Shown here one piece after another: positions 2 to 5,344 of a DNA stretch of 11,179 nucleotides (position 1 is the first letter of the stretch; every line of letters begins with the position of its first letter). The notes below the pieces were generated by a model. It had not been told where the DNA came from. It was given only the letters and a program-made list of their open reading frames with translations, and ran no database searches. This DNA comes from Nitrospinota bacterium (lineage in GTDB: Bacteria > Nitrospinota > Nitrospinia > Nitrospinales > VA-1). The DNA lies in NCBI GenBank assembly GCA_038108555.1, contig JAYNIA010000039.1, positions 13,259-24,437 on the forward strand, written 5' to 3'. Both the position numbers and the translations under genes were made by a program.

Positions 2-604
2 GGCGGAGATGCCAGTGACGATGCGGATGGAGTTGAGATAAGAAGAATCATTCAACTTCCACCTGTGGACTTTACCTGTACTATAGGAAGCTCTGGCGGT
101 GAGGTTTGTCAAAATGTTCCGGGAGCCCATCAGGCATTTTTGATGGATGGCATAGGGCTGTCTGTAGATGGCACCGCCATACCAAATGTGACCCATTTCA
201 ACACACTGCTGAACACACTCCCCTCGCAGGCCCCGGGAGGAAATGTCCAGGTCGTAAGCCCCAACATTCTTAATGTTTTCGTCCCATCAAACATTATTGC
301 CAGTGGCCATGGTGCGCATCGATTCAAGTTGGATAACAGCAATGGTCGATCGCATTTTGATTTCACAGGTGTAATTAGCCTTGGGCATGAGATTGTTTCT
401 GAATCTTTTGCCAATCCAGGAGGGTTTACAAGCTTTGACAGAACTGTATTCTGCCCTCCAGGGAAAGTTGCAACAGGAGGAGGTTTAAGCGACTCAGGAA
501 ACATAAACGTTTCAGGGCCGGTCGGAAACAATGGTTGGAGAGTTGATGGAACTACAAGCTCAAATCCTTATACAGTTTCCGTTATTTGCGTGAATGATTT
601 TTAG
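2..604 (+). CDS. 5'-truncated modular, probably extracellular protein: Ig/IPT-like beta-sandwich plus C-terminal CPxGxxAxGGG...W...C domain
   Basis: The frame is open from nt 2 (GGDASDDADGVEIRRIIQLPPV...), so the GTG at 65 is probably internal. It is Gly/Ser/Asn/Val-rich with beta-strand patterning (VQVVSPNILNVFVP...G.HRFKLDNSNGRSHFDFT). It ends in TVFCPPGKVATGGG...GWRV...VSVIC, a head module seen on collagen-like/fibre proteins. A terminator follows directly. Confidence 0.75.
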   Translation, partial: GGDASDDADGVEIRRIIQLPPVDFTCTIGSSGGEVCQNVPGAHQAFLMDGIGLSVDGTAIPNVTHFNTLLNTLPSQAPGGNVQVVSPNILNVFVPSNIIASGHGAHRFKLDNSNGRSHFDFTGVISLGHEIVSESFANPGGFTSFDRTVFCPPGKVATGGGLSDSGNINVSGPVGNNGWRVDGTTSSNPYTVSVICVNDF

Positions 605-2665: not shown

Positions 2666-3550
2666 ATGAAAAAACAAGCTTTTATTTCCTTAATGTCGGG
2701 CTGTCTGGCGATTGTTTTCCTTATTAGCGGGACACCTTTAGCTTTCGCACAAGGCAAAAGTAACGGAAACAGCAACCCAGGGGTTAGTATCCCACAACAA
2801 ATCGATAATCTTCGACAGGACCTTTCCAACTCCGTCAATGATCTCCAGCAACAAATTGATACTATTGAGTTGATACCTGGACCGCAAGGGCCTAAAGGAG
2901 ACAAGGGGGATACGGGAGCGACCGGCCCCCAGGGACCCTCCTGCACCGTGGTGGATGATGGCGAAGGTACAGCAACGCTGTCATGTCCGGATGGAAGCAG
3001 TGTCAGTTTCCCGGTACCCATTCCCGTTGTGCCTGGTTTTAACGGATCGGTTTTGATCAGTGAAGCTGAGGCAAACCAAATCAACAGCTGGGTGGGCACA
3101 CCCCAGGATCAAGCCTGGACTCTCTGCTATCGTCGTAGTGATGATGGGCCTTCGGCCAGTACCTTTCATAACAAATGTAATGACAAGGGTCCGACCGTTA
3201 CAGTCATCACATTAAGTACCGGAAAGAAGATTGGCGGGTATGCGGCGGCTAGCTGGGCAGGCCAGGGTTATAGGGGAAACAGCACCAACTTCCTGTTTTC
3301 CTTGACGAACAACTACAAGCATTCCTGGTATCGGTATGGGTACTACCAGTATAACCATAATGGATATGGCCCCACATGGGGAGGAGGGCACGACTTCTAT
3401 ACCAATTTACTCAGTTCCAGCTATTGTAATATTGGTTATTCCTACCGTTGCCGGGTGGGGAGTTATGGTTCATCGACCTGCAGGAATGATTTCTGCGGCA
3501 CTTACCGGCCGGGAATTGTAAATCTGGAAGTCTGGTATAAGGCCAACTAA
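2666..3550 (+). CDS. Secreted protein: signal peptide, short coiled coil, collagen (G-X-Y)7, Cys-hairpin linker, C-terminal TLDc domain
   Basis: RBS GGGGGA at 2656-2661. Sec signal ending AFA|Q. Heptads IPQQIDNLRQDLSNSVNDLQQQIDTI. TLDc motifs: SVLI...INSW, WTLCYRRSDDG.SASTFHNKCNDKGPTVTVI, IGGY...W, FLFSL, YGPTWGGGHD, LEVW. Confidence 0.88.
   Translation: MKKQAFISLMSGCLAIVFLISGTPLAFAQGKSNGNSNPGVSIPQQIDNLRQDLSNSVNDLQQQIDTIELIPGPQGPKGDKGDTGATGPQGPSCTVVDDGEGTATLSCPDGSSVSFPVPIPVVPGFNGSVLISEAEANQINSWVGTPQDQAWTLCYRRSDDGPSASTFHNKCNDKGPTVTVITLSTGKKIGGYAAASWAGQGYRGNSTNFLFSLTNNYKHSWYRYGYYQYNHNGYGPTWGGGHDFYTNLLSSSYCNIGYSYRCRVGSYGSSTCRNDFCGTYRPGIVNLEVWYKAN
2879..2941 (+). repeat. Collagen-like G-X-Y repeat (7 triplets)
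   Basis: Encodes GPQ GPK GDK GDT GAT GPQ GPS (aa 72-92). Confidence 0.9.
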
Positions 3551-3560
3551 AAATAAATAT

Positions 3561-3596
3561 GGGAAGGAAAAGGGGCCCTCCCTTTTCCTTCCTTTT
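3561..3596 (+). terminator. Rho-independent terminator after the TLDc gene
   Basis: Perfect 13-bp stem GGAAGGAAAAGGG (3562-3574) / CCCTTTTCCTTCC (3580-3592), 5-nt loop, then TTTT. It starts 11 nt after the stop at 3550. Confidence 0.85.
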
Positions 3597-3651
3597 ACCC
3601 GAATTTTTGGGTATACTCGGGCTAGTATTTCTCGCCTGGTGGAGGATGGGG

Positions 3652-4452
3652 ATGAAGCATTGGATCAAAACAACTCTGGGAATCGGATTGGCCGTTGGCT
3701 TGTGGCAAGTATCGGCTGACGCGCGTTTTCTGGATTTAAAAAAACAGGAACAAATTCCTGCGAGTCCGGCTCCTATCCCGCAAACCCAAACAATTCCTCA
3801 ACCGTCAACCCCTGGCACCAGTTACAACACGGAAGTAGCGCCCCAGGGAATCAGCCTTCGGTTTGAGAATCTTTCTTTAATCAGTGTTCTGCGAAACATC
3901 CAGGAAGAAACCGGCATTCTTTTTTCCATCGACCCGGAAATGGAATCTGTTCCTTTTAGTGCCACCATTCAGGCCGACAACTGGGAAGCCGCAGTCAGGG
4001 AACTGCTTAAAGGTTTCAGCCGCGTAGAAATTTGGACAGACAACCTGGAAACAAGTCGTGTCTGGTTATTATCAGGCCAGGGACTCTCCCCCGAAGACTT
4101 TAAAAGCAACGCAGATATCCGCTTGAGTCGCCAGGCACCGCAAAAACAGTCACAGCCAAAGGTTCAAAAGAAGCAACGTTTCCGATCCGCGCCAACTCCA
4201 GTGCCTGCACCCGCTCCTGTTAAAAAAGCATCTTTACGCATTGAAGATTTGCCCCCGCATATTCTCTTTGAACCTGGTGTCCTGACTTTCTTTAAATCCA
4301 AAGGAATTGCACTTCCACAAAACGTGAAAAACATGTTTGGGCCCAATCTTGAAGGATTGCCCGCAAACATGCCCATCTCCCCCCACATTCTTAACGATCC
4401 GACTTTCACAGGGTTTCTGGAATCTCAAGGGATTCAACCTCCACAATCCTAA
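3652..4452 (+). CDS. Secreted protein (266 aa) with an STN/secretin-N0-like domain, Pro/Gln/Lys linkers and a twin C-terminal repeat
   Basis: Start reassigned to ATG 3652: GGAGG at 3641-3645 is 6 nt upstream, and this start gives the signal peptide MKHWIKTTLGIGLAVGLWQVSADA|R. STN-like segment: ISLRFENLSLISVLRNIQEETGILFSIDPEM...FSATIQADNWEAAVRELLKG. Confidence 0.75.
   Translation: MKHWIKTTLGIGLAVGLWQVSADARFLDLKKQEQIPASPAPIPQTQTIPQPSTPGTSYNTEVAPQGISLRFENLSLISVLRNIQEETGILFSIDPEMESVPFSATIQADNWEAAVRELLKGFSRVEIWTDNLETSRVWLLSGQGLSPEDFKSNADIRLSRQAPQKQSQPKVQKKQRFRSAPTPVPAPAPVKKASLRIEDLPPHILFEPGVLTFFKSKGIALPQNVKNMFGPNLEGLPANMPISPHILNDPTFTGFLESQGIQPPQS
4255..4443 (+). repeat. Two-copy 21-aa protein repeat, 42-aa period
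   Basis: PHILFEPGVLTFFKSKGIALP (4255-4317) vs PHILNDPTFTGFLESQGIQPP (4381-4443): 10/21 identical, ungapped. Confidence 0.75.
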
Positions 4453-4510: not shown

Positions 4511-5344
4511 ATGCCTCAAGATATAAAAGTAAATTTGGGAACCCATCTTCTAGAAGAAGGAAAAAATGTAGCAATCAATGACCCTCTTTCAAAAAAAATT
4601 GGTGCCAAATTTGATGAGGGGTTGCCAGACACTATCATCCTTCATTACACGGCAGGTCCCAGCGTTGAGTCAGCAATAAACACCCTGGTTCATTCCGACA
4701 CCAAGGCCTCCGCCCATTTGGTGGTGGGACGGGATGGTTCGGTCACCCAACTCGTTCCTTTTGACACAATCGCCTGGCATGCTGGAAGAAGCTCTTTTGG
4801 AGGGCGCTCCGGATTCAACAAATATTCGATTGGAATAGAAATCGTAAATGCTGGGCATCTACAAAAGGAAAGAGATCAATACAAAGCCTGGTTTGGAAAA
4901 ACGTATCCCCAGGATCAGGTTTTGGAAGCCTCTCACCAAAACCATTCTTCACCTAGGTTTTGGCACACTTACACAAAAGAGCAGATCGATTGTGTTTTAA
5001 ACTTATGCACCCAACTAAAAGAAGCATACTCCATCAAAGAAATCCTCGGACATGATGAAATTGCCCCGAGCCGAAAAACAGATCCGGGTCCGGCGTTTCC
5101 TCTTGAAAGCGTTCGCTCCCAAGTATTGGGTCGCGAAGAAGATTCCGGTGATGGAATTGCATCAGAAGGCGTTGTCATTGCGACTAAACTGAACATCCGG
5201 CATGGCCCCAACAGCAATGCCGACCTGGCAGGACCGCCGCTTCCCGGAGGAACGAAGGTCAAAATTTTAAATGAAAAAGAAGGGTGGTATGAAGTCGAAG
5301 TCACCAAGCGCGGATGGGTCAGCAAGAATTTTATCGAATCCTAA
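4511..5344 (+). CDS. N-acetylmuramoyl-L-alanine amidase (Amidase_2, AmpD/AmiD-like) with C-terminal SH3b domain
   Basis: IILHYTA, SAHLVV..DG..TQLVP...AWHAGRS, SIGIEIVN and GHDEIAPSRKTDPGPAFP (His/His/Asp Zn ligands). C-terminal KLNIRHGP...GTKVKIL...GWYEV...GWVSKNFI is SH3b-like. Confidence 0.92.
   Translation: MPQDIKVNLGTHLLEEGKNVAINDPLSKKIGAKFDEGLPDTIILHYTAGPSVESAINTLVHSDTKASAHLVVGRDGSVTQLVPFDTIAWHAGRSSFGGRSGFNKYSIGIEIVNAGHLQKERDQYKAWFGKTYPQDQVLEASHQNHSSPRFWHTYTKEQIDCVLNLCTQLKEAYSIKEILGHDEIAPSRKTDPGPAFPLESVRSQVLGREEDSGDGIASEGVVIATKLNIRHGPNSNADLAGPPLPGGTKVKILNEKEGWYEVEVTKRGWVSKNFIES

Follow-up and report, generated by a model that had tools for sequence, protein, structure and literature searches.

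A TLDc domain as a swappable head on a predicted secreted collagen stalk in a Nitrospinota bacterium

Background

The window investigated here, a stretch of 11,179 nucleotides from a Nitrospinota bacterium, contains an ORF of 294 aa (2666–3550, + strand) in which a collagen stalk, predicted to be secreted, ends in a TLDc domain. Exported bacterial TLD proteins were already known through the NCBI model NF038124; the TLDc domain on such a stalk, as read from the sequence, is what is added here. Comparison with related genomes shows that the TLDc head is an optional and swappable module in a variable surface-gene site. On balance we favor the view that this is a binding head of some kind. That its predicted ligand is a glycan is a more tentative proposal, to which we give rather less than an even chance.

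The available portions of PMC9263379, PMC8608904 and PMC5614904 treat TLDc as a eukaryotic module of oxidative stress and V-ATPase, and the 54–343 TLDc copies per Entamoeba genome are explained likewise in that of PMC12930195. Among the titles and abstract openings searched, which included few subscription journals, there was no work on bacterial or extracellular TLDc.

Results

The ORF and its predicted export signal

A preliminary description of the window had listed a signal peptide, heptads, (G-X-Y)7, a hairpin neck, a Pro/Val spacer and a set of TLDc motifs, all of which are present in the ORF at 2666–3550. The six head cysteines (at 154, 171, 254, 262, 272 and 277) and the Tyr-rich patch are likewise as described. 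A candidate ribosome site, GGGGG, is located 5' of the ORF at 2656–2660. A terminator-like hairpin, identified by consensus match only and with no strand assigned, is 3' of the stop codon at 3562–3592. Three of four runs from a single study have contigs that cover the ORF, in one case without its last 27 bases, with a few substitutions and no indels; two of these three runs may be the source of the analysed DNA itself. No RNA run is listed among four runs, which weighs neither for nor against expression.

The first 28 residues (2666–2749, +) are a predicted Sec signal peptide. By our own crude rule there is a basic start, a hydrophobic core (11-residue mean up to 2.6) and an A-F-A cut after residue 28, and relatives of the protein finish the signal peptide in the same way, after A-F-A. 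A lipoprotein reading via C13 was dropped, because the h-region before C13 is too short and the relatives are cut after A-F-A. The rule passes 29 of the 47 relatives with an intact start, missing the other 18, compared with 615 of the 2435 genes of this genome. Applied over the whole protein it identifies no transmembrane stretch after the signal peptide, and no anchor to the cell surface is visible in the sequence. Four secretin-family matches in the genome may represent a route for the protein across the outer membrane.

The stalk

Residues 42–70 (2789–2875, +) make up a heptad helix, which is a predicted trimerising coiled coil. AlphaFold2, run on the monomer, predicts the helix at 42–66, hydrophobic residues are found at 42, 46, 49, 53, 57, 60, 64 and 67, and tblastn of the stalk finds this segment again in other genes (see below). 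It is followed by a collagen-like (Gly-X-Y)7 (aa 72–92; 2879–2941, +), an uninterrupted run of seven triplets for which the Pfam Collagen match is 17 bits, below the cut-off of 27.2; relative P0003 has about 40 triplets. The neck (2942–3013, +) has three strands in the AlphaFold2 model, at 94–97, 102–106 and 112–116, and carries C93 and C107, between which we infer a disulfide from their position. Such a three-strand neck precedes the TLD domain also in relatives without collagen, and a weak Pfam CFSR lead on it (E 0.039) is below cut-off. A Pro/Val spacer (aa 117–124; 3014–3037, +) joins the neck to the head.

The layout had been described as collectin-like, which needs one correction: here the coil is N-terminal of the collagen, whereas in collectins it is between collagen and head, and the neck is a three-strand unit. 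As predicted from sequence, the layout of the stalk is closer to that of phage and bacterial coil-collagen-head proteins. In one of these, EPclA, a coil adjoining the collagen trimerises (PMC3368898, in the part available), and by analogy a trimer of the TLDc protein is a reasonable expectation on the basis of its collagen and coil. A three-copy prediction of aa 36–294 scored 0.59, versus 0.68 for the single control, and is taken neither for nor against a trimer. Collagen is present in only 29 of 215 retrieved TLD proteins, so a trimer is not required by the TLD family.

The TLDc head

The head (aa 125–294; 3038–3547, +) is, on the evidence of its sequence and modelled fold, a true TLDc domain, of a Cys-stapled bacterial branch. 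The search against the Pfam TLD profile (PF07534) that had been proposed as a check gave a match on aa 127–290 of 82.1 bits (E 6e-23; cut-off 24.5), over model positions 4–167 of 170. An AlphaFold2 model of the monomer, built from a 38-row alignment, has a mean pLDDT of 84.6, mostly above 90 in the head. Compared with the TLDc domains of NCOA7, OXR2, mEAK-7 and Skywalker, the modelled head gives Z 20–21 and an rmsd of 1.9–2.3 Å over 149–162 residues (for NCOA7, Z 21.4 and 2.3 Å over 161 residues), and the identity to NCOA7, OXR and mEAK-7 is 17–22%. A wider set of solved TLDc domains, including Oxr1 and Rtc5, gives Z 15–21 at 13–22% identity, and Foldseek matches the head to TLDc structures at E 1e-9; the fold that had been proposed is thus borne out in the model. 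The best unrelated fold reaches Z 5.2 and lectin folds only Z 4–5. A fibrinogen/ficolin-like head was ruled out, giving background scores only, with ficolin rows at Foldseek E 0.47–0.92. No precedent for a TLDc domain binding sugar was found in the literature or structures examined.

Residues used by the eukaryotic V-ATPase binders were compared as well. NCOA7 binding needs the Gly of a surface loop (available text of PMC8608904), and by motif G161-x-S163 of the head matches this loop. mEAK-7 contacts V-ATPase subunits A, B and E (available text of PMC9263379). Seven of its contact residues could be aligned with the head, K384 being outside the alignment: two are identical and one is similar, but two are different and two are in gaps, and the Tyr match sits in a hypervariable loop. 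In the 92% complete genome, no T6SS sheath gene and no V/A-ATPase subunit I was found.

Cysteines and the variable loop

Cysteine statistics were derived from 259 domains, reduced to 233 by a gap filter and then to 179 at <72% identity. Among these 179 non-redundant domains, in which kin are not independent, C254 and C277 co-occur with a phi of 0.94 and C262 and C272 with a phi of 0.91, C154 is never found without C171 (128 of 128), and the other pairs are far less sharp (phi 0.21–0.65). The pattern points to predicted head disulfides 154–171, 254–277 and 262–272 around the Tyr-rich loop. C171 and H168 are conserved too in BTB-type, likely cytosolic TLDc domains. A DsbA-like protein is encoded in the genome. 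Proteins crudely called as exported have an even number of cysteines in 81 cases and an odd number in 47, against 558 and 655 in the comparison (p 2.6e-4). Searches of the genome, which is 92% complete, turned up neither DsbB nor VKOR; the re-oxidising partner of the DsbA-like protein may be another protein or may be missing from the assembly.

The Tyr-rich loop (aa 215–235; 3308–3370, +) is a candidate binding loop. It has 8 aromatics, compared with a clade mean of 4.6, and is the most variable long stretch of the family, with a mean top-residue frequency of 0.30 versus 0.58–0.75 in the core blocks and a length of 14–31. A fixed core with variable aromatic loops would fit a recognition domain. 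Such aromatic loops are binders of proteins as well as of sugars.

A variable site with swapped heads

The conserved flank gene (3559–4452, +), downstream of the ORF, has no Pfam family and an STN-like lead (Atlas 0.83), and is matched in 43 of 70 family genomes. Its true start is probably Met32, because the listed start at 3559 overlaps the terminator-like hairpin. The flank gene was ruled out as a dedicated partner of the TLDc protein, being present in most relatives with no collagen gene directly upstream. With this gene as the marker, the site was compared in 24 orthologous loci (at least 57% identity). The site is empty in 16 of these, with a small membrane gene directly upstream of the flank gene. 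In two others a DNA polymerase gene (named by eye) is upstream, and in one no flank is shown. The site is filled in the remaining five, with a collagen-TLD gene in three (this locus included), a TMTC-like gene in one, and another collagen-family head in one. Since the site is empty in 16 loci and filled in five, the collagen-TLD gene belongs to a cassette that is optional.

In both this genome and locus L007 the gene order is collagen paralog, multi-TM/TPR gene, collagen-TLD gene, flank gene. The nearest named relatives of the TLDc protein are from Nitrospina sp., and both of the genomes that hold them share a family with this genome. Of 120 Nitrospinota genomes, 3 have TLD; it is also present in 10 of 151 genomes from the phylum of a myxobacterial relative, and in none of 14 control genomes.

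The stalk is not confined to the TLDc protein. Using tblastn, ten matches to the coil-plus-collagen junction were located in 4 of 17 genus genomes, four of them in this genome, where the stalk coil is common to the TLDc protein and three paralogs. The heads on this common stalk are TLD, a Kelch propeller, DUF1554 (twice), an IPT accompanied by a small beta domain, and domains without a name. Two of the stalk-bearing genes are cut by locus or contig ends. DUF1554 we take to be a C-type-lectin-like fold.

The Kelch propeller is on a paralogous collagen-stalk gene upstream of the window (G000:C39:11339-13862). An IPT/TIG domain (Z 8.6) and a two-Cys small beta domain weakly like the PCSK9 C-terminal modules (Z 5.9) are encoded at 2–604 (+), probably as the end of a paralogous collagen-stalk gene, although that link spans a 100-N gap. 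The Kelch stalk gene and the piece at 2–604 may be one gene or two across this gap.

The multi-TM and TPR gene (691–2424, +) is also part of the variable cassette. From its motifs, we presume that its product is a TMTC-like glycosyltransferase; searches of Pfam, NCBIfam and PDB sequences gave only TPR matches for its family, with no Pfam match for the membrane part. Relatives are beside collagen genes in L007 (where the gene is split), upstream of the flank gene in L100, and present as a remnant in L102, and there are eight related tblastn matches within this genome. The product could glycosylate the collagen-stalk proteins. On the other side of the flank gene, an Amidase_2 and SH3 gene (4511–5344) is present before a cytochrome c gene. 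Where relatives have a visible flank, the cytochrome c gene mostly adjoins the flank gene directly, and the Amidase_2 and SH3 gene looks like a second local insertion.

The bacterial TLD family

From a scan of GTDB contigs, the best 80 of 131 confirmed stretches resolved into 71 loci from at least 8 phyla. Myxococcota account for 33 of these, 17 are labelled Pseudomonadota, 9 are from Bacteroidota, 2 each are from Nitrospinota and Planctomycetota, 3 are from others, and 5 are unassigned. Several Enterobacteriaceae- or Rickettsiales-labelled records cluster with myxobacterial sequences and may be mislabelled. In a representative library, whose entries come without taxonomy, 81 clusters reach E 1e-30 or better, and at 1e-10 their number is 1157. 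The earlier statement that bacterial copies are sporadic is correct in that the distribution is patchy (3/120 and 10/151 genomes, above), but the family is sizeable and has a curated NCBI model, NF038124. That model already names surface-anchored bacterial TLD proteins, and the novelty claimed for a secreted bacterial TLDc was overstated.

Among the proteins of the 71 loci, 43 of the 62 with an intact end finish in TLD, and tandem TLD copies are present in 10 of 72. In the 29 of these 72 run against Pfam, the co-domains are MopE-like repeats (9), Stig1 (4), HYR (3), LamG (3), collagen (3) and C-type lectin (2), with single matches to cadherin, FG-GAP, SprB and a T9SS tail; BTB is absent from these 29. 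Four more-distant TLD proteins have PEP-CTERM-like tails, as judged by eye. The PEP-CTERM members and several from Bacteroidota have no cysteines at all. Giant proteins, one of them in a frame of 6233 aa, are encoded in L010, L021, L026 and L039 (G065:C29), with two to three TLD copies, MopE-like repeats and a C-type lectin.

A phage origin was rejected: tblastn found no match of the TLDc protein in 50,697 phage records, and a viral fold search gave only two matches at E 0.001 or better, both of them from Pandoravirus.

Eukaryotic parallels

In Porites, proteins combine collagen, Ig and TLD, and the Porites TLD is 42% identical to the head investigated here. Proteins of Actinia and Oculina have C-type lectin, H-type lectin, F5/8 or EGF domains joined to TLD, and the ESM Atlas contains a cnidarian EGF-TLD cluster. 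Two of the Porites proteins, P0208 and P0202, combine a hydrophobic stretch at the N terminus with a polybasic site, collagen, Ig and a terminal TLD, a layout that we take to resemble that of those type II membrane collagens from which a trimeric head is shed. Both in other bacteria and in corals, the related TLDc domains are likely to be surface-binding heads.

An IQ-TREE analysis was made of 62 hand-picked and diverse rows, with no OXR1, NCOA7 or mEAK-7 rows and no real root; of its 59 inner branches 29 stay open, and the bootstrap was not yet stable. A single clade of 42 (96/95) takes in every one of the 24 rows from named bacterial loci, and with them a protein labelled as from a dinoflagellate, an IFI44-like protein of a scallop and secreted proteins that are unnamed. 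The five coral rows are a clade of their own (100/99), and the three rows of Nitrospina type cluster together with a Desulfobacteraceae protein (94/84). The scallop IFI44-like TLD (P0213) groups with a Sediminibacterium TLD (L072:4932-10436; 99/94) inside the bacterial clade, by either transfer or tree artefact. Also in the clade of 42 is P0124, which looks secreted and carries a MACPF domain besides four copies of TLD; here TLD may direct a pore-forming protein to its target. In P0196 and P0198, TLD is paired with PAN.

Discussion

How might such a protein work? From its signal-peptide pattern it would be exported by Sec, and four pairs of cysteines (93–107, 154–171, 254–277 and 262–272) would then be oxidised. 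The coil and short collagen would join three chains, as in known collagen biology, into a rod of about 10 nm, given a rise of 2.9 Å per collagen residue (PMC3368898, in the part available). Three disulfide-stapled TLDc domains would be held together as a putative binding head for repeating surface structures, presumed to be glycans on particles or cells, with avid binding via the variable aromatic loops 198–206 and 220–233. With no anchor visible, the trimer would either be set free or stay attached through non-covalent contacts. The earlier suggestion of an adhesin- or lectin-like function stands in part: an exported, disulfide-held head is supported by the co-domains, the head swapping, the cysteine co-conservation and the coral parallels, and the sugar ligand stays tentative.

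Alternatively, variable collagen fibres, perhaps glycosylated by the TMTC-like neighbor, might mask the cell from phages or grazers or absorb them, with the head binding the attacker and not a substrate for settlement. Accessory, head-swapping surface genes are a pattern typical of predator-driven surface variation, and this is an accessory gene (3 of 120 phylum genomes) with swapped heads at a variable site. There is also a precedent in the glycosylated BclA-type collagens (PMC8968730, available text). We nevertheless think such a shield improbable: the glycosyltransferase label of 691–2424 is from motifs, the membrane part having no Pfam match, and the head must still bind something, by which this explanation overlaps with that of a binding head.

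Somewhat less probable again is a TLDc domain without an outside ligand, whose sole task would be to nucleate or cap the collagen triple helix. In prokaryotic collagens a C-terminal domain, such as PfC, can act as a trimerisation module (PMC3368898, available text), and the collagen here is very short. But most members of the TLD family are without collagen (29 of 215 have it), TLD is found alone on a PEP-CTERM anchor, in tandem, and inside giant adhesin-like proteins, and in this protein an N-terminal coil is already there.

An extracellular antioxidant, in which the Cys-rich TLDc would scavenge reactive species of oxygen or nitrogen around the cell and so echo the role of OXR1 in oxidative stress, is quite unlikely. 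TLDc proteins guard cells against oxidative stress, and there are six cysteines in the head; yet the same source, as far as its available text goes, reports no evidence of enzymatic activity for TLDc and places the cysteine oxidation outside the catalytic range (PMC5614904). Furthermore, the head cysteines co-vary as structural pairs, and the PEP-CTERM and several Bacteroidota members are without any.

One form of the effector option of the preliminary description is that a grazer takes up the protein, whose head then attaches to V-ATPase and upsets the acidification of the phagosome. This is very improbable despite the shared fold, the G161-x-S163 motif and the two identical and one similar mEAK-7 contact residues. 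Subunits A, B and E face the cytosol, and an ingested bacterium sits in the lumen, across the membrane from them. The 92% complete genome yielded neither a T6SS sheath gene nor a gene for V/A-ATPase subunit I, four of the seven contact positions differ or are in gaps, identity to the binders is only 17–22%, and the cytosol would reduce the disulfides.

We return, then, to the binding head. If it binds glycans or surface proteins, this would be a second function for the TLDc fold, with a bearing on the many BTB-TLDc and IFI44-like proteins, and those of corals, that have no known role. Many of the TLDc domains described here are placed beyond the reach of any V1 sector and are interchangeable with lectin-type heads. 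A bolder reading, which we put forward as doubtful, is that TLDc is a general recognition fold, comparable to C-type lectin, discoidin and SPRY/LamG. It would have a large branch that binds glycans outside the cell, mounted by bacteria, by marine protists and by corals on adhesins, on collagen stalks and on MACPF proteins and exchanged between lineages, V-ATPase binding being one specialisation. Were it true, a small secreted trimer would offer a direct way to the TLDc ligand site; the domain, of 170 aa, is easy to express. In marine nitrite oxidisers there seems to be a variable set of collagen surface proteins, which may govern particle attachment or predator contact.

Comparison with known systems

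The nearest known system is NF038124, the PEP_CTERM-anchored TLD proteins, which are also exported and bacterial and are on the same bacterial branch of the tree; identity to one member, P0027, is 47%. The TLDc protein scores 79.5 bits against this model (E 2.7e-22), below its 100-bit cut-off. Unlike those proteins it ends with TLD, with no PEP-CTERM tail or TM helix, and it has a coil, collagen and neck. There are six cysteines in its head, where the sampled NF038124-type proteins have 0–2 (one has 4).

With OXR1, NCOA7, TBC1D24/Skywalker, mEAK-7 and yeast Oxr1 and Rtc5, the protein shares the fold (Z 15–21) and the core Gly/Glu motifs. It differs from these V-ATPase binders in its low identity (13–22%), its signal-peptide pattern at 1–28 (crude rule), its F-H-x-x-C and G-P-T-[FW]-G-G-G-H-D motifs, and its Cys-stapled C-terminal insert; of the seven mEAK-7 contact residues compared, two are identical and one is similar. 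The cnidarian TLD proteins, known by database names only, also have a terminal TLD beside extracellular modules, with collagen in two, at 40–43% identity, but they are a separate clade (100/99) without the 254–277 and 262–272 pairs.

In its stalk, the protein resembles EPclA of E. coli prophages, Scl1/2, BclA and Lcl, in which a coil is beside a Gly-X-Y stalk with a globular end domain; it differs in having only 7 triplets, a TLDc head and no anchor. NCBIfam matches to prokaryotic collagens are weak, via the collagen only, and far below all cut-offs. Like the collectins and ficolins, it has a collagen stalk, a Cys-containing globular head and, probably, avidity, although the head is TLDc, not C-type lectin or fibrinogen-like, and the coil precedes the collagen. 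The protein therefore belongs to the TLDc family, and not to NF038124, the V-ATPase binders or the collectins; by analogy, it likely works like a collectin.
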